Below are positions 854 through 8,373 of a DNA stretch of 64,000 nucleotides, piece after piece (within the stretch, counting starts at the first letter, position 1; the number at the start of each line of letters is the position of its first letter). The DNA lies in the NCBI GenBank assembly GCA_020057295.1, contig JAGVGF010000001.1, positions 64,001 through 128,000 of the forward strand, read 5' to 3'. The stretch is from an archaeon. Its GTDB lineage: Archaea > Nanobdellota > Nanobdellia > Woesearchaeales > UBA9642. Under the pieces are notes generated by a model that saw only the letters and a list, made by a program, of their open reading frames with translations, was not told where the DNA came from and searched no databases. Made by a program: the position numbers and the translations under genes.

Positions 854-1372
854 ATGTTCGACGATAAAAAATTGCGTGAAGCATTTGAAAAAATTAAAGA
901 AGAACGTGATGAACATTTAGAGAGTATTAACGAATTAACAACAGAGTTACAATCAGCATTTGAATACATTTCTGGCCTCGAAAATAAGTACGAAAAGATT
1001 AAAGAAATTACTGATGAACTACAAATGTTCAAAAATAGTCTTCTATTAAACGACAAGTCTCACTTTTCAAATATTATATTAAGCTTGGATGAGCAGAAAT
1101 TGTTCTTAACACTATATGTTTTTGGGGAAAAAGAACCATTACAATATAAGTTTTTAACAAAGAAACTAGCTTTAGAAACAGATACAATAAAGATGTTATT
1201 ATCCTCTTTATTAGATAAAAAGATACCTATAACTAGAGAGAAGATAGGTTCAGAATGGCATTTTAATATAGATCCACGTTTCAGGGAGTTACAAACCAAA
1301 GAAAACCTTATAAAAATTCATGAATCTGTATCCAAAGGCATATATGAGAAGAGTTTGAAAAATTTCTTTTAA
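854..1372 (+). CDS. Hypothetical protein: N-terminal coiled coil, winged-helix-like C-terminal half, PIP-box-like tail
   Basis: RBS gggggat upstream; heptad N-terminus; LSLDEQKLFLTLY...L..K.IPI.R wHTH-like pattern; ends EKSLKNFF. Confidence 0.7.
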   Translation: MFDDKKLREAFEKIKEERDEHLESINELTTELQSAFEYISGLENKYEKIKEITDELQMFKNSLLLNDKSHFSNIILSLDEQKLFLTLYVFGEKEPLQYKFLTKKLALETDTIKMLLSSLLDKKIPITREKIGSEWHFNIDPRFRELQTKENLIKIHESVSKGIYEKSLKNFF

Positions 1373-1764: not shown

Positions 1765-2100
1765 GTGAAAAAACAAAAAAATAACTCAAAAAAGTTAATA
1801 CCAAAATATATTGAATTAAAGGGTTTTCTAAGTTTTTTTATACTTCATGAACTCGACGATAGGCCTTCTTCTGGCGATGAACTTGCATTAGCTATCGGTG
1901 AGCGTAGAAACACTGTTTTAACACCTGGAACAATCTATCCAGCTTTGAAGCGTTTACGTCGACAAAAACTGATATTTTATCGTAGAAATGGCAGAAAAAA
2001 AGTATATGTTTTAACTGATCTTGGTAAAAAAGAGCTTAAAGCGCTATATGTTGTTTTTGCTGATTTTTTTAGTGGATTAAAAACAAAAATAAAGCGATAA
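1765..2100 (+). CDS. PadR-family transcriptional regulator
   Basis: KGFL...IL..L, PGTIYPALKRL, Y.LT..G...L motifs. Confidence 0.9.
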   Translation: MKKQKNNSKKLIPKYIELKGFLSFFILHELDDRPSSGDELALAIGERRNTVLTPGTIYPALKRLRRQKLIFYRRNGRKKVYVLTDLGKKELKALYVVFADFFSGLKTKIKR

Positions 2101-2309
2101 ATTTTAGTTATTGATTAAATCCTTTAGTTTTTTGTTTTATTTATATTTGATTATATGTTTTAATCGAAAATTAAATATTTTGTGTTTAATTTTATGTTTT
2201 TTGATTAAATATTTTAATTAAAGATTAATATCTTTAGAATTAATTTTGTTATATTTGTGCTATTATATTTTAATCAAAAATTAAAAAATATAAGAAAAGT
2301 TATATTTAT

Positions 2310-2798
2310 TTATCTATGTTGTCTTAAATGACGTGGTGTTCCATATACTTGAGATTGTCTCATATAAGGATTAAAGTTATTATGTCTGTGTTGTCTAAAA
2401 CCTGCATTTCCTATGTTTATTCCTGCTGAAACATTGCCAAATCCGTCAGCATAAAAATATCCGCCGTCTCTGTGAATTAATCCTCTGCCTTGATAGAATG
2501 GACTTCCGCTAATGAATTCAACGTCGATCATTGGTACAGGAACGTATCTTACTATTGTTTCCTGGACTGGTTTGTCTATTGATTCTGTAGTTACTTTTGG
2601 TTGTGGTGCTGGTGTTGCTTGTATTTGTTTTGGATTACTTACATAATTGTTAATTGTAATATTAATAGGTTGAGTTACTGGTTGATTATGCGGTATAGAA
2701 TGATAATGTGGTCTACAACTAAATAGTGCAAATGCTAATAAACCTGCTCCACAAACTGCAGCTCCTGCAAAACCGTATTTTATAGCTTGATCATCCAT
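2310..2798 (-). CDS. Hypothetical N-terminally anchored Pro/Gln-rich protein
   Basis: Hydrophobic N-terminus ending in FSC, Pro-rich linker; start set at MDDQAIK. Confidence 0.55.
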   Translation of the reverse strand: MDDQAIKYGFAGAAVCGAGLLAFALFSCRPHYHSIPHNQPVTQPINITINNYVSNPKQIQATPAPQPKVTTESIDKPVQETIVRYVPVPMIDVEFISGSPFYQGRGLIHRDGGYFYADGFGNVSAGINIGNAGFRQHRHNNFNPYMRQSQVYGTPRHLRQHR

Positions 2799-3023
2799 AA
2801 TTATTCCCTCTATAAGTATATAAAGCATAACTAGTATTTAAATTTTACGATTTTATAGTGACAACACTATTTTTATTGTTTAATATGTTGTGATTAAATT
2901 ATTTAATCAAATCTAGAAATATTTATCTTGCTTTGTTAATATTTATCTGCTTAAATTATTTAGTTTTTTATTAAATTATTTATTCTTATTTTTTGTTGTT
3001 TTAACTGTTATTTTGCTATTATT

Positions 3024-3056
3024 CGAAAAATTTATATACTTAGGGTTCCCTAAGTA
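3024..3056 (+). promoter_or_regulatory. BRE/TATA promoter of recombinase overlapped by perfect 9-2-9 inverted repeat
   Basis: cgaaaaa-tttatata (3024-3038); tacttaggg-tt-ccctaagta (3037-3056); RBS aaggtga before ATG 3094. Confidence 0.7.
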
Positions 3057-3093
3057 AACAAAATACTTGTTTTATCAGTAGCAAAGGTGAGTT

Positions 3094-4323
3094 ATGGCAC
3101 GAAAATCTGTTGTAATTTCTCAAGGTATGGGCCGAAAACCAAAAGCTGCGATTTATATTAGAGTTAGTACTGCCGAACAAGCTAAAGAAGGATATAGTTT
3201 GGGGGCTCAAGAAGAATCATTAACAGGATATGTTAAAAATATGAATTATGATATTTACAAGATCTATAAAGATGAAGGAAAATCTGCTAAAGATATGAAA
3301 CATAGGCCAGCATTGCAACAATTGCTTAAAGATGCTGAAAATAAACAGTTTAATGCAGTAATAGTATATAAGCTTGATAGATTTAGTAGAAGCTTAAAAG
3401 ATTTAATCTTAACTATTGAGAAACTTAAAGACATTGGAATAGATTTTATTTCATTACAAGACAAGATAGAAACGGCAAGTGCGGCTGGTAAATTAATGTT
3501 TCACATAATTTCATCATTCGCAGAATTCGAGCGAGACATAATCAGTGAAAGAACAAAATTTGGAATGTCAGAAAAAGCACGTGAAGGCGGCACAGTAACT
3601 AAAGCAGCATATGGCTATAAAATTGTTGATGGCAATATCATATCAGATCCTGAAAAGTGTGATAAACTGAGAGAAATATTCGAGACATACCTAAATAATA
3701 ATATAAGTCTAAGTAAATTGGCAATAAAATACGATTTAACAACAAAAGGATTAATCAGTATATTAAAAAATCGTACATACATTGGAGAATTACGTTTTAA
3801 CGACATATATTCTAAAGGACAACATGATTCAATACTATCAAAAGAGTTATTCGATAGTGTACAATTGAAGCTAGATTCAACACTTTATCATAGAGAGAAT
3901 ATTAAATATAGCAATTTACTACAAAAACTTTCCAAAAAAACGTTACAAAAGGAATATATGGAAAAATTTACCTCTTTATTATCAAAAAAGATTATAAGCA
4001 TGAACGTAGTTGACATATCCGTAGATTCTGATGAAGATTTATCCAAGTTTTCAGAACCAAAAAAATTAAAATGCGCTGGACAAAAATATTTATTAGATCA
4101 AGGATTTAATAGTAAAGATATATCATTTGATAGAGTTTTTATCAATGCTGATAAAGCAGATATATGCGGTATAAACGGCAATCATAAGACTTATTTATAT
4201 CACAATACGGAAAGTTTAAATGATTTTTTAAGGTATATTTCCGAACATATCATTGTAGGTTTTTTACAAGAAAGTGAGGATAAGATAATGCTTTACACTT
4301 TTAGAAAAGAACTAGAATTCTAA
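3094..4323 (+). CDS. Large serine recombinase (resolvase + recombinase domains, C-terminal extension)
   Basis: YIRVST catalytic Ser, RPALQ, KLDRFSR, AEFERDIISERT, YGY, IL.NRTYIG, H..I.S.ELF..VQ motifs. Confidence 0.93.
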   Translation: MARKSVVISQGMGRKPKAAIYIRVSTAEQAKEGYSLGAQEESLTGYVKNMNYDIYKIYKDEGKSAKDMKHRPALQQLLKDAENKQFNAVIVYKLDRFSRSLKDLILTIEKLKDIGIDFISLQDKIETASAAGKLMFHIISSFAEFERDIISERTKFGMSEKAREGGTVTKAAYGYKIVDGNIISDPEKCDKLREIFETYLNNNISLSKLAIKYDLTTKGLISILKNRTYIGELRFNDIYSKGQHDSILSKELFDSVQLKLDSTLYHRENIKYSNLLQKLSKKTLQKEYMEKFTSLLSKKIISMNVVDISVDSDEDLSKFSEPKKLKCAGQKYLLDQGFNSKDISFDRVFINADKADICGINGNHKTYLYHNTESLNDFLRYISEHIIVGFLQESEDKIMLYTFRKELEF

Positions 4324-4991
4324 CCTTGTGGCAATAATAAGCCTAATTTGTTAAAAATAGCTTTAGGTGTTCTTTTGTTTGTACCGGACATTTTACCAAT
4401 CCATGTTTCGAGTGCATCCCTATTTTTTAAGAATTGTTGAGACATCGCCGCGCGATCTTTACATCCTTCAAGCGTCATTAACAATTCGTAATAATACTCA
4501 TATTTTATACCTAATTGTGATATATCTTCACCCACACCCTTAATTTTACGATCTTTATCATTAAGTAGTTTACCTGCTTCATCAATAACTTTTAATCCAT
4601 TAATTTGATTAGCAGTAACCAGTTTAACTATGTTATTAAGTATAGTATTTTTAGGATGTTTTTGCATATATTTTACAGTTTCTAAACGTAATTTTTCACC
4701 AGAAGACTTAAACTCTTTAACTATAGTACCAAGTACATTTTGTAGTTCATTATCAGAACCTACACTAGGAGTAACATATATCAATTCTGGTAATTCCTTA
4801 ATTTTTTCAATACCCTTATTCTTTAATTCATCCATTAAAACTGAAAATCTACCTTTAAACTTTTCATCTTTAGTTTTTGATAATGATAATTCTACATTCT
4901 TTAACATCTTAATCTTACATTCTTCTAATGTCTTAGTGCGTAAGTTATTAATATCTTTCAAAGTTTCTTTTATAGTTTTTGTGTTAGCCAT
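4320..4991 (-). CDS. Hypothetical alpha-helical protein, last gene of 4-gene operon
   Basis: ATG 4 nt after previous stop; Lys/Leu/Glu-rich, no TM. Confidence 0.65.
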   Translation of the reverse strand: MANTKTIKETLKDINNLRTKTLEECKIKMLKNVELSLSKTKDEKFKGRFSVLMDELKNKGIEKIKELPELIYVTPSVGSDNELQNVLGTIVKEFKSSGEKLRLETVKYMQKHPKNTILNNIVKLVTANQINGLKVIDEAGKLLNDKDRKIKGVGEDISQLGIKYEYYYELLMTLEGCKDRAAMSQQFLKNRDALETWIGKMSGTNKRTPKAIFNKLGLLLPQG

Positions 4992-4995
4992 TTTA

Positions 4996-6408
4996 TTATT
5001 GCCTGAACGGATTGTTTGGTAGTGGAGCATTGTTATTATTATATGCTGCTCCAAATTGTTGATAATATATCATGAATGCATTACACATAAATGCAAATCT
5101 TTGGAATGCTATATAAATTACTTCTAAGTCTTGAGCTGTCAGGTTAGGATATGTTGGATCATTAAACAAATTATTCATACCTTGATTAAAATCTGCAATA
5201 CCATTAATTAATCTATCATGCAAGTCATGTAAAGCAGTCCACATTTGAGGATCTTCAACCCTGTTTTGTACTTGTCCACGATGTAATTGTACTAATAATC
5301 TAGATAAATCAGCATATTCTGAAGCCCTGGCTTGTAAAATTGTTAATAATCTGTTTAATGCTTCAATTCTATTATTAGCAGCTTGAGGTGCATCAATAAA
5401 AAATAGTAAGTTGGCACGGACTAAAACAGTGTCAGTATTTGGTTGATAAGCAGTTATTTCTATCATGTAACCACCAGTATTGACAAGATTATTGAACGGT
5501 GCGTAATTAATTGTTTGTCCATTAACATTTCTAACTCTACCGCTATGATCTTGATTATTTAATCTAACATTATAATCAAAATTTGCGGCAAATCCTTGAC
5601 CAGCAACATTAAAACTTACAGGAATATTAGTTCTAGGAAGATGATGTGAATAAGCTTGAGGACTAGTAATAGTTAATGTGTTATTATTATTTGTACCAAC
5701 TCCTGTACCACCAAGATTTCCTTGTGGTCCAACAGGTCCAAGATTGCCTGCAGGTCCTACTTGTCCTGCCGCTCCCTGAGGTCCTTGTGGTCCGGTAGGG
5801 CCAGTTGTTGATCCAGTTCCAGCACCACCAAATAATTTAAACATTTGAATAAGTAAATATATGAATGCAGTTATAGCGGCTAAAGCTAATACTCCGGATA
5901 ATAAAGGAACATTTTGGTCTATCCATTGATATAATCTACCAAAAGGTACAACCATTAAACCGTAAATTATGAGATATGTTAACGATGCACTAACATTCTT
6001 AGCATTATCGCCAGTAAATAACCCGAGCAATAAATTATATAGTAACATGGCCAGTATTAATAAAAATACTATTAAAGCTATAGGTTCAAGTTTTCCTAGA
6101 TAGAAACTAGTATATGTTTCAAGCATAACCATTGAAAATGTTAATGCTAAAGCTACAGCAACGGCAATAGTTTTTGCCTCTTTTTTATTATTTGCAAAAG
6201 CCTTTAAGAATGCAATTTGTCCTATACTTAAGAATAGTAAGAAATATATTATTGCATCAATAAATTCATAAAATCGCATGTAAAATCCTGCTATATCTAA
6301 TCCACTAAATGGATGAAGAATAGAAATTAGATCAAAAGTTAAAGCGTACGCAGAACTACTTAAGATCAAAATCGAAAATATATATAATGATAACTTGCGA
6401 ATATTCAT
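4996..6408 (-). CDS. Signal peptide + 5-TM membrane protein with collagen-like repeat, Ig-like and helical domains
   Basis: SSSAYA cleavage motif, five hydrophobic segments, 12 Gly-X-Y triplets, LTITSP...YMIEITAY Ig-like strand pattern. Confidence 0.75.
   Translation of the reverse strand: MNIRKLSLYIFSILILSSSAYALTFDLISILHPFSGLDIAGFYMRFYEFIDAIIYFLLFLSIGQIAFLKAFANNKKEAKTIAVAVALALTFSMVMLETYTSFYLGKLEPIALIVFLLILAMLLYNLLLGLFTGDNAKNVSASLTYLIIYGLMVVPFGRLYQWIDQNVPLLSGVLALAAITAFIYLLIQMFKLFGGAGTGSTTGPTGPQGPQGAAGQVGPAGNLGPVGPQGNLGGTGVGTNNNNTLTITSPQAYSHHLPRTNIPVSFNVAGQGFAANFDYNVRLNNQDHSGRVRNVNGQTINYAPFNNLVNTGGYMIEITAYQPNTDTVLVRANLLFFIDAPQAANNRIEALNRLLTILQARASEYADLSRLLVQLHRGQVQNRVEDPQMWTALHDLHDRLINGIADFNQGMNNLFNDPTYPNLTAQDLEVIYIAFQRFAFMCNAFMIYYQQFGAAYNNNNAPLPNNPFRQ
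5695..5802 (-). repeat. Collagen-like (Gly-X-Y)12 coding repeat
   Basis: GPT GPQ GPQ GAA GQV GPA GNL GPV GPQ GNL GGT GVG; locally GC-rich. Confidence 0.85.
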
Positions 6409-6417
6409 ATTACTTGT

Positions 6418-8373
6418 TTATGGTTTCTTTTTACGAGCGTTTTTTATGACTAATTCTTGACGTTTCTGTATAGCATTAACTAAATCACTAGCAAATTTAG
6501 TTAATAGTTTTTGGTTGTTTTGATTGATTTTAGTAATCTTAGTTTTTCTATCAACTGTGCTAAAATTCTTGATAAATTTATTAGCAGCTTTTATGAATTC
6601 CAATAATTCAATTCTTGTCTTATTAGTTTTCTTTGGTATTTGTGTAATAATTATACTTTCTTCCGCACCTACTGCAGCAACAAATGGATTAAGATTTATC
6701 GTTGCAGGATCAATGTTAGGATCCATAATAAGCTTTTTAGCTACATTGTTCATTAAATTATTAGCTACTTCGTCAAACAATTTATCTTCAGCAGCATACA
6801 ATTTGAATATTTCATCTTCTATTTTATCTATGAATGCTGGATACTTCTTAACTAAATCTGTTTCCGTTGTTAATAACTCTTTAACTCTTTCGCGTTTTCT
6901 AGTTAGCATTATAGCATTACTAGTTTCGATAGCTACTATCTCTTGAGTTCTACCTCTAATTTTTTTCAGATATTTTTCCACTTCGGATAATGTCTGATCT
7001 CTAATAAGAGAGAATTTTATAGGATTTATAGTTTTTTTTGCGACATCAACCATACTGATGTTTGTTAATGGATCAGTAGTTAGTAGATTTACAATTTTAT
7101 TGATGTCTTTAAGATTTTCATTATCAACATCTTGCATACGTTTAGTTTGGTCTATTATAGTTTTCTCGCTATCCTTTACAATAATATCTTCCTGTAATTC
7201 TAAGTTAACTTCTTTATTTAAATTGTTAAAATCTGCTAGCAATGTAGGATATATTGGTGTACCCTTAAGTTCATCTATATCCTCTTGAATATCTTTTATT
7301 ATTGCGTTATTTTCATTGAATAATTTTTCAACATCTTCTTTGAATTCTTTATCTATTGTAGATAGCGTAGTATCGGTATCTTTTTTACATTTCTCAATAG
7401 ATTTTTGTAAATTTAGAACTGTATCTTTTAATTTAGTTGTATAATTTCGTAATGTGTCAGAATAAGTTTGTAATTGTGACTGATATTGTGCATATGCTGG
7501 ATTAGATGTGTTATTATGTATTTGTTGAATTGCCTTCTGTAACTTCCAAGCGTTTTGCAATGAAATTTCTAGTTGTTGTAATAGTTTAACTTGTTCATCT
7601 CGGCTTAATTTATCATTACTCTCAAATCTTTCTTCTAAATTTTCCAAGTTCTGAATTTTACCTTCTAGCTGTTGCACATCATAATCTAAACTGTTAACTT
7701 TGTTTGCAAACTTTTGTTCTTTCTCTAATTGTTTTCTTCTACGTTTCTCTTCGCTACGTTCATTATTTTCTGCTCTTCCTAATTGTGTACTTCCGCTCCT
7801 GAAACCTTTGAATATTGCGCCTATGCCTATTATTAGTCCGATTAGCGCGATGATGAAACATGCATTCCATATTCCAGAAAGGAGTGATTGACTTTCAATG
7901 TATTCTTTTAATTTTGGAGCCATCCAAGTCACAAGTATATACATTGTAATAAATCCTACTGAGAATGCTGCAAGTTTACTTCCACCAAGATTTTTAGTCC
8001 ACGTATATACGCCAATACCGAATATTAAGAAGAATATTAATGCTGCAAATGGTGCTAACATTCCAAGATTGAATCCTGATTGTCTCTCAAATATTGCCAT
8101 TCCAATACCGAGTATTACTCCGATGATTATAGGTATGGTCTTATGTTCTTTGAATTTTTCACCAAGTGCACTATTGGCTACACCGATAAATAGTATAAAA
8201 TATAATACTGCATCAATGAATGGTGCATATCTAAAATATGTTTGAGCAATATCTACATTTTTAGCTATAGGTTCGAGAATTTTATCTAATAAATTTGTTG
8301 CACCGAAAACGAGAGGTATAGAGAATAATACTATTAGTGCCATTATTGGCAGTACACGAAAATTTTTACGCAT
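6418..8373 (-). CDS. Signal peptide + 5-TM membrane protein with long coiled-coil C-terminus; paralog of 4996-6408
   Basis: DIAQTYFRYAPFIDAVLYFILF vs DIAGFYMRFYEFIDAIIYFLLF; FNLGMLAP vs FYLGKLEP; LLSG in both; RBS gaggtgga. Confidence 0.78.
   Translation of the reverse strand: MRKNFRVLPIMALIVLFSIPLVFGATNLLDKILEPIAKNVDIAQTYFRYAPFIDAVLYFILFIGVANSALGEKFKEHKTIPIIIGVILGIGMAIFERQSGFNLGMLAPFAALIFFLIFGIGVYTWTKNLGGSKLAAFSVGFITMYILVTWMAPKLKEYIESQSLLSGIWNACFIIALIGLIIGIGAIFKGFRSGSTQLGRAENNERSEEKRRRKQLEKEQKFANKVNSLDYDVQQLEGKIQNLENLEERFESNDKLSRDEQVKLLQQLEISLQNAWKLQKAIQQIHNNTSNPAYAQYQSQLQTYSDTLRNYTTKLKDTVLNLQKSIEKCKKDTDTTLSTIDKEFKEDVEKLFNENNAIIKDIQEDIDELKGTPIYPTLLADFNNLNKEVNLELQEDIIVKDSEKTIIDQTKRMQDVDNENLKDINKIVNLLTTDPLTNISMVDVAKKTINPIKFSLIRDQTLSEVEKYLKKIRGRTQEIVAIETSNAIMLTRKRERVKELLTTETDLVKKYPAFIDKIEDEIFKLYAAEDKLFDEVANNLMNNVAKKLIMDPNIDPATINLNPFVAAVGAEESIIITQIPKKTNKTRIELLEFIKAANKFIKNFSTVDRKTKITKINQNNQKLLTKFASDLVNAIQKRQELVIKNARKKKP

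Follow-up and report, generated by a model that had tools for sequence, protein, structure and literature searches.

What does a stand-alone serine recombinase do in an archaeal chromosome when a single small palindrome lies on its own promoter? This question is raised by a locus in a 64,000-nucleotide stretch of a Woesearchaeales genome (contig JAGVGF010000001.1, positions 64,001 to 128,000; this whole stretch is called the window), in which a serine recombinase (SR) gene is directly preceded by a perfect 9-2-9 inverted repeat. A preliminary description of the window had proposed a single-site system serving either chromosome-dimer resolution without XerA/dif or an inversion switch. The comparative evidence favours the first of these proposals, since the site is alone in the genome, neither XerA nor a dif-like site is found, and the locus is the one that xerA occupies in relatives; the function itself is deduced from these comparisons. 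We thus propose that the palindrome and the SR constitute a self-contained, autoregulated gene-plus-site module that probably replaced XerA/dif in situ and would resolve chromosome dimers, and we give this reading a probability of about 0.55.

The palindrome, TACTTAGGG-TT-CCCTAAGTA, lies upstream of the SR gene at a distance of 38 nt, and its overlap with a TATA box, reported in the preliminary description, was confirmed by direct reading as 2 nt shared with TTTATATA (Table 1). This box is, we infer, the promoter of the SR gene. The source genome consists of 1,201,343 bases (31% G+C) in 6 contigs, the window being on contig 4, and is 100% complete by marker genes. The site pattern occurs once in the window with up to 3 mismatches allowed (shuffled sequences gave a match in 2 of 100 cases), and the full site is single-copy in the whole genome. 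The earlier observation that the window holds no second site therefore extends genome-wide: neither a second full site nor a credible half-site was found in the window or in the genome at up to 3 mismatches, and the 9-mer half-site has no further copy in the genome, where two other 8-mers occur without partner context. The SR gene is likewise the sole match to PF00239 in the genome. A palindrome of this kind is not rare in itself, as the window contains 16 perfect inverted repeats with arms of 9 nt or more and spacers of 0-6 nt; the present one shares the highest G+C content among them. It is through its conservation that the site stands out from chance.

The SR has more than 3,000 homologs, which come from Woesearchaeota, Pacearchaeota or Nanoarchaeota wherever the source gives a name, and which fall into two length classes, one of about 255 aa (60-65% identity over the first 250 aa) and one of 380-450 aa. 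The sequence AAAATTTATATACTTAGGGTTCCCTAAGTATA recurs nearly unchanged 5' of SR relatives that are only 52-65% identical, so that the palindrome is indeed conserved upstream of DPANN orthologs, a check that had been suggested at the outset. In a scan of one genome per species, the site was found at 15 loci; an SR gene adjoins 14 of them and the fifteenth ends at the edge of the locus. Exactly one copy was present in each of five other genomes checked (up to 2 mismatches), and viral contigs gave no match to the site. A scan of metagenomes with a looser pattern returned 115 loci, with an SR at 27. All the metagenomic loci with a TTTATAT context carry an SR except L218, for which no SR match was found in the approximately 430 nt remaining on the contig. 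Nearly all of the 88 loci without SR are unrelated to the site (high-GC contigs and a recurring 44-nt palindrome from gut samples), apart from the AT-rich orphans L231, L144 and L195. The 44-nt palindrome, of the type CAGATGCTTTGTCCACTTTGGGATCCCAAAGTGGACAAAGCATC, is carried by many gut-type contigs of about 40% G+C (L123, L124, L126, L127, L132, L140, L142 and about 20 more).

For the comparison of the sites themselves we pooled 40 unique related loci. The arms ACTTAGGG-NN-CCCTAAGT are essentially invariant over this set, whereas the sequences upstream of them agree at only about 45-68%. TTTATAT precedes ACTTAGGG in 38 of the loci, and the spacer measures 2 bp in all 40. The central dinucleotide varies (CA 18, TG 8, TT 5, CT 4, AA 3, AG 2) and is never palindromic. 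From base composition, 29% of palindromic centres would be expected; as the sites are related, the six centre types alone give p ~0.13, and the absence of palindromic centres is only suggestive of something other than chance. We also considered central TG/CA flips as a mechanistic event and rejected them: the sequences around such pairs agree at only 58-68%, and ordinary divergence is enough to explain them. More distant relatives have symmetric arm variants, ACTAAGGG-CA-CCCTTAGT in G118 and AATAAGGG-TT-CCCTTATT in G009, which indicates that the site co-evolves with the protein. At the loci encoding the short form, an extra half-site CCCTAAGT(TCAC) lies 32 nt from the centre (31 of the 40 loci). 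In the long-form clade to which the SR of the window belongs, the site is a single palindrome and no extra half-site or accessory subsite was found.

The place of the gene in the chromosome links this site to XerA/dif. Order-wide searches covered 401 genomes at least 85% complete, gene positions being read from the best 150 matches of each search; in the counts of published genomes given below, the unpublished genomes G316, G279, G396, G140 and G202 are left out. Upstream of the SR lies g172a, a gene present in 314 of the 401 genomes, whose product has no Pfam or NCBIfam family and whose neighbours in the Atlas carry HTH_11/HTH_24. The gene order AMMECR1-rpoL-g172a-PadR-(variable)-SR-(variable)-membrane operon-L35Ae is kept in 9 further genomes of the genus. 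In the congener G003 there is no SR, and the slot holds a 268-aa tyrosine recombinase that scores 264.9 bits with the XerA model (cut-off 220). The order there is g172a-PadR-dif-xerA, dif-xerA being exactly at the position of palindrome-SR in the genome of the window. The G003 site is an 11-6-11 inverted repeat, AGTTCGTATAA-TATACA-TTATGCGAAGT, and such dif-like sites lie 25-55 nt upstream of xerA in G003, G399 and G098, while related ones adjoin xerA at seven further loci (L038, L040, L041, L043, L044, L048 and L049). In G003 and G098 the dif-like site comes directly after a TTTAAATA-type box, as the palindrome does after TTTATATA. We recognised these sites by their form and place; the 11-6-11 form is that of archaeal dif in PMC2958812. 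The same source describes, for Thermococcales, a dif that does not adjoin xerA, and unlike there, xerA and dif are in this order, as judged from their arrangement, one module.

Outside the genus, G118 and G167 carry SR relatives of 37-55% identity at 0.8-1.6 kb from g172a. The matches listed give the positions of both SR and g172a for 17 published genomes, from at least 7 families; the SR relative (37-67% identity) is no more than 3 kb away from g172a in 15 of them, and in the other two SR and g172a are on different contigs. For XerA and g172a, both positions are listed for 57 published genomes; the distance is 5 kb or less in 37, and 17 of the remaining 20 have the two genes on different contigs. 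The slot marked by g172a is therefore the home of xerA in the order, and it is also occupied by SR. From this arrangement, the g172a product is a candidate for assisting or controlling dimer resolution. We further suggest that SR with a 2-bp-centred palindrome displaced XerA/dif in several Woesearchaeota-type DPANN lineages, with g172a perhaps as a shared timing or direction factor in these FtsK-less cells; this extension is more tentative, and we place it slightly below even odds.

We then looked at XerA and dif in the genome of the window itself. No XerA was found above the curated cut-off, the lone tyrosine recombinase scoring 66.7 bits against the 220 of NF040815. The 422-aa tyrosine recombinase open reading frame (ORF), at C6:97,349-98,617 (L003 901-2169), stands between a fragment of an SMC/Rad50-like ATPase and a long uncharacterised ORF, and may be the integrase of an island. 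As for dif, the best profile score in this genome is 16.2, compared with 22.7-38.1 for the ten sites from which the profile was built, and this best match covers the left arm only. In G007, G009 and G010, the dif pattern gave 3-mismatch matches only, no better than the reversed-control level; it likewise failed to pick up the divergent dif of G011. A full-length SR relative is present in 30 published genomes; XerA matches are absent in 11 of these, weak only in 5, intermediate in 3 and strong in 11. A XerA match is thus missing from 11 of 30 SR-bearing and from 38 of 358 SR-less published genomes (odds ratio 4.9, Fisher p 4e-4, a descriptive value as the relatives are not independent). The association between SR and the absence of XerA is real in this sample and far from exclusive.

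The protein belongs to the serine recombinase superfamily. Its first domain matches Pfam Resolvase (PF00239; aa 18-166, nt 3145-3591, E 3.5e-43), and a second one matches Pfam Recombinase (PF07508; aa 192-261, nt 3667-3876) with 25.5 bits for a cut-off of 21.1. In the AlphaFold model, a helix at aa 130-163 is followed by a mixed domain at 175-241 and a long helix at aa 250-279. Y21, R23, V24 and S25, which form the YxRVS-type motif, are the same in all 31 aligned homologs, and the catalytic domain contains long invariant runs common to all of them. Because both the catalytic serine motif and the active-site domain are invariant, catalysis appears to be retained. Pfam and the alignment thus agree with the preliminary description as regards an intact YxRVS and a recombinase domain, and Pfam and PHROGs agree with it that zinc ribbon and nearby phage genes are lacking: no zinc-ribbon family was matched by Pfam in the SR, whose aa 262-409 contain only two Cys, and near the SR PHROGs returned only weak matches of tail-fibre families to the Gly-X-Y repeats of a 470-aa membrane protein. 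The label of large serine recombinase given at that time holds for the catalytic and recombinase domains and fails for the rest of the protein, in which the zinc ribbon with its embedded coiled coil is replaced by another fold (aa 286-409) of different topology. With 409 aa instead of about 180-200 aa, and a Pfam Recombinase domain rather than a short C-terminal helix-turn-helix (HTH), the protein is not a small resolvase/invertase (Tn3, gamma-delta, Hin, Gin) either, and its clade has neither a multi-subsite res nor paired inverted hix/gix sites with an enhancer.

The C-terminal fold is predicted with good scores (predicted local distance difference test, pLDDT, of 85-95 in the full-length model and 80.7 when modelled alone). 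The C-terminal 125 aa match no family; Foldseek gave nothing for the domain at E <=0.001, and the ESM Atlas gave no usable match for aa 300-409. An exhaustive structural search with VIA-align returned nuclease-fold chains at ranks 1-19 and in most of the 50 matches, all weak (Z <=5.3), among them tRNA splicing endonuclease (Z 5.3), FAN1 VRR_NUC (4.6), Hjc (4.5) and the fdxN excision-controlling factor 2okf (3.4). The catalytic residues of PD-(D/E)xK enzymes are not present: the third-strand position reads IDC, VDC, IEC, VEY, MAL or VML in homologs and YLYH here, and the lysine after the nuclease-type acidic position is found in 0 of 31 sequences. We read the modelled domain as a probable non-catalytic, nuclease-like module in place of the zinc ribbon. 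One relative encodes this domain in an ORF of its own downstream of the SR gene; in others a PDDEXK_1 protein is encoded 3' of the SR.

Table 1. Coordinates of the features of the recombinase locus, with the dif-like sites of related genomes (window positions unless a locus is named).
Feature	Position	Strand	Basis or remark
g172a, 172-aa coiled-coil and winged-HTH-like protein	854..1372	+	marks the slot of xerA or SR
PadR-family regulator	1765..2100	+	Pfam PadR, E 8.2e-12; in the genus, syntenic between g172a and SR
Cluster of 6-7-6 palindromes, TG(C/A)TTA-N7-TAA(G/T)CA	2110..2975		candidate accessory or regulatory sites
TATA-box-like element TTTATATA	3031..3038	+	direct reading; its last 2 bases are the first 2 of the palindrome
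Perfect 9-2-9 palindrome	3037..3056		proposed crossover site and autoregulatory operator
Central TT dinucleotide	3046..3047		proposed position of the staggered cut
GGTGA, Shine-Dalgarno-like	3086..3090	+	direct reading; 3 nt 5' of the ATG at 3094
Serine recombinase (SR) gene, 409 aa	3094..4323	+	ORF
C-terminal alpha/beta domain of SR	aa 286-409, nt 3949-4320		AlphaFold; order alpha-beta-beta-beta-alpha-beta-beta
dif-like 11-6-11 site upstream of xerA, G003	L063 2245-2272		
dif-like 11-6-11 site upstream of xerA, G399	L258 5254-5281		
dif-like 11-6-11 site upstream of xerA, G098	L259 2655-2682		

How could such a module work? Through its recombinase domains, an SR dimer would bind the palindrome of 20-28 bp and, since the site comes after the TATA box and before the transcription start, this binding would repress the SR gene's own promoter. 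In a chromosome dimer, two identical sites would synapse. Ser25 of each subunit would then cleave the central TT, leaving a 2-nt stagger, by analogy with the serine-recombinase chemistry described in a review (PMC5357621); the subunits would rotate and religation would give two monomers. With a non-palindromic centre, only the parallel alignment of the sites would be religated. The reverse (fusion) reaction would have to be controlled, and the candidates for this role are the extra half-site of the short-form loci, the C-terminal domain, the 6-7-6 palindromes and g172a. At some of the relatives' loci, the site-bearing promoter drives an operon with extra genes, for a P-loop kinase or for enzymes of repair type, namely a pyrimidine-dimer DNA glycosylase, LigT-type 2'-5' RNA ligases, HAD hydrolases/phosphatases or a nucleotidyltransferase; judged by their predicted products, those of repair type would speak in favour of dimer resolution.

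Several observations weigh against the proposal that the SR module took over dimer resolution from XerA/dif. The 11 published SR-bearing genomes with a strong XerA match indicate that the two systems are not mutually exclusive, and G011 carries SR, xerA and a dif-like site beside xerA. Conversely, the 38 SR-less published genomes without XerA match, some of which perhaps reflect assembly gaps, imply that the absence of XerA alone calls for no substitute. The assembly analysed here is in 6 contigs, and xerA/dif could sit in a gap. The clade of the window also does without an accessory subsite that would serve as a topological filter against the reverse reaction. Finally, recombination at the site is a prediction from sequence comparison.

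As regards skew, the cumulative G-C skew of the 188-kb contig that carries the window has its maximum at C4:68,381, that is window position 4381, 60 nt past the end of the SR gene, and in congeners the skew switches within 4-20 kb of the SR. Gene orientation converges at this same window position, and orc1/cdc6 is found where contig 1 begins. In G042, G043 and G118, however, the site is located inside a monotonic skew. The true dif-xerA of the closed genome G098 is also about 90 kb from the closest skew extremum, and we therefore consider skew as an uninformative rather than a negative criterion for a site in the replication terminus region. This agrees with the remark, in a review (PMC5357621), that archaeal dif is mostly not at 180 degrees from oriC. 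One public DNA run, available as contigs (0.23 share of words), contained fragments of a relative of 90-96%, one of them spanning the intact site. No joints at the site were seen in these contigs, which cannot reveal rare rearrangements.

An alternative that deserves attention is that the SR is the fixed remnant integrase of an element that landed at or next to dif, in which case the palindrome would be its un-recombined attP-like site and operator, and the enzyme would still integrate or excise episomes with a partner site instead of acting for the chromosome. The dif site is a hot spot for mobile elements, and the first 270 aa of the protein are closest to phage/SCC-type large serine integrases: they match the integrase family PHROG 95 (E 2.4e-80) as well as CcrB/CcrC/XisF models, and the closest solved structure by sequence is the catalytic domain of TP901-1 integrase (E 4.7e-30). 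A remnant would also suit the patchiness of SR in the order (41 of 401 genomes), the variable gene content right beside it, and the occurrence in one genus of two SR types of about 41% identity in the same slot, which suggests replacement by transfer. Yet no partner site was found among the half-sites of the genome, in viral contigs or as a TATA-context site lacking the gene in DPANN-like metagenome contigs, and both arms are conserved, so the site is not a hybrid attL/attR. No element genes flank the site, and the possibility of a larger element with att ends around the SR gene, which had been named at first as a point to check, can be set aside. Moreover, the place beside g172a is stable over at least 7 families, and the zinc-ribbon/coiled-coil domain that governs the choice of attP x attB is missing. 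We consider an integrase remnant unlikely, though it is the alternative that best withstands these data.

A second alternative is that the palindrome is an operator only, bound by SR or by another dimeric regulator, and that the true substrates of SR are dissimilar sites beyond recognition by sequence search or that SR is a pure DNA-binding regulator. A position after the TATA box and ahead of the expected start would indeed be a classic place for an archaeal repressor, the variable centre fits an uncontacted operator spacer equally well, and a lone site cannot be rearranged in a monomeric chromosome. On the other hand, the invariance of the catalytic serine motif and of the active-site domain in every aligned homolog favours retained catalysis, and the 2-bp spacing common to all 40 sites, with no palindromic centre, is that of a crossover site. 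In layout and locus the SR module also corresponds to xerA-dif, where the site is one of crossover. An operator function is in any case compatible with dimer resolution, as one site does both jobs in known resolvase systems. Operator function alone thus seems improbable to us, even a little more so than a remnant integrase. The inversion switch of the preliminary description, a phase-variation invertase flipping the convergent membrane-protein operon or a promoter, is very improbable, for although one source labels relatives 'DNA invertase Pin-like' and variable surface-type membrane proteins are encoded downstream, the window and the genome hold no inverted partner, be it a full site or a credible half-site, no joints were seen (contigs only), and all congeners share the order from SR to the membrane operon.

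We compared the proposed dimer-resolution module with known systems. To our knowledge, all described chromosome-dimer resolution systems (XerCD, XerS, XerH, XerA and a Legionellales system) are tyrosine recombinases. Like systems of the Xer/dif class, the SR module has a single site per chromosome; its recombinase does not belong to the Xer family of tyrosine recombinases. Archaeal XerA/dif resembles it in the slot beside g172a in sister genomes and in a site placed 25-55 nt upstream behind a TATA-like box, but differs by an unrelated protein family and chemistry and by its 11-6-11 rather than 9-2-9 form. The bacterial XerS/difSL and XerH/difH, as presented in PMC5357621, also have one recombinase gene and a unique adjoining chromosomal site as a module, and this source mentions a xerA/dif module in some archaea. 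XerS and XerH differ from the SR in being tyrosine recombinases with 6-11 bp centres and FtsK control, compared with a serine enzyme and a 2-bp centre in an archaeon.

Among serine enzymes, the resolvases of Tn3/gamma-delta res, Sin, beta and ParA have the same catalytic domain as SR, which gamma-delta and Tn3 resolvase chains match with E 2.5e-9 to 5e-6. Transposon and plasmid serine resolvases have a crossover site that overlaps their own promoter, autoregulate, and resolve multimers or cointegrates. They differ by a small C-terminal HTH and a three-subsite res, whereas SR has recombinase and nuclease-like domains, a single palindrome and the chromosomal slot of xerA. TP901-1, phiC31, CcrB/C and XisF are the closest relatives in sequence and share the catalytic and recombinase domains; SR differs from these large serine recombinases in that it lacks a zinc ribbon/coiled coil, an attP/attB pair and surrounding phage or cassette genes, and in its near-perfect palindromic site. 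XisF, which acts with XisH/XisI in fdxN excision, offers a further parallel, a serine recombinase with an endonuclease-fold accessory, as evoked by the weak match of the C-terminal domain of SR to 2okf. The structural match is weak, and in SR the domain is fused and the nuclease-type acidic residues are not conserved, in contrast to the XisF/XisH/XisI system.

By title and abstract, we found no report of chromosome-dimer resolution by a serine recombinase in archaea and no paper on XerA of Woesearchaeota, and the mention of a DPANN 'serine recombinase' was confined to methods. According to a review (PMC8371274), the serine recombinases of archaea 'were never fully investigated'. If the SR module does resolve dimers, it would represent a clean non-orthologous displacement of a core genome-maintenance function in genomes without XerA/dif, by an enzyme that makes double-strand breaks and needs another way to impose direction. 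The g172a product would then be a candidate accessory factor for archaeal dimer resolution. The catalytic and recombinase domains followed by a nuclease-like fold form a new domain architecture, and a compact family of recombinases of 250-410 aa with a fully defined palindromic site of 20-28 bp is attractive for biochemistry and as a tool.

Some additional features of the neighbourhood were noted. The pattern AA..ATTTAA[GT]CA, which represents the 6-7-6 motif, has 20 matches genome-wide, 5 of which are in the 2110..2975 cluster, the only cluster in the genome with at least 3 matches within 400 nt. The 6-7-6 motif is also repeated around xerA in G003 (L063 2270-3190), and candidate binders are PadR, g172a and SR. 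The second SR type, of 259-313 aa, is found in the slot within the genus at L011-L015 and L020-L022 (G002, G005, G009 and G010) and has behind it a small ORF similar to the recombinase-domain part alone (aa ~90-260); in 3 of these 4 genomes, the GGG-NN-CCC palindrome is absent from the 220 nt upstream. At about 10 of the 40 relatives' loci (inserted or split genes at L234, L226, L028, L131, L162, L212, L153, L035, L190 and L129), one or two extra genes stand between the site-bearing promoter and the SR, mostly with 4-nt overlaps. Downstream of the SR, two large membrane proteins are encoded on the minus strand (4996-6408 and 6418-8373), one with a Gly-X-Y collagen-like stretch and the other with a long coiled coil. 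Their N-terminal membrane parts are alike and, in congeners, syntenic but fast-evolving (29-57% identity).

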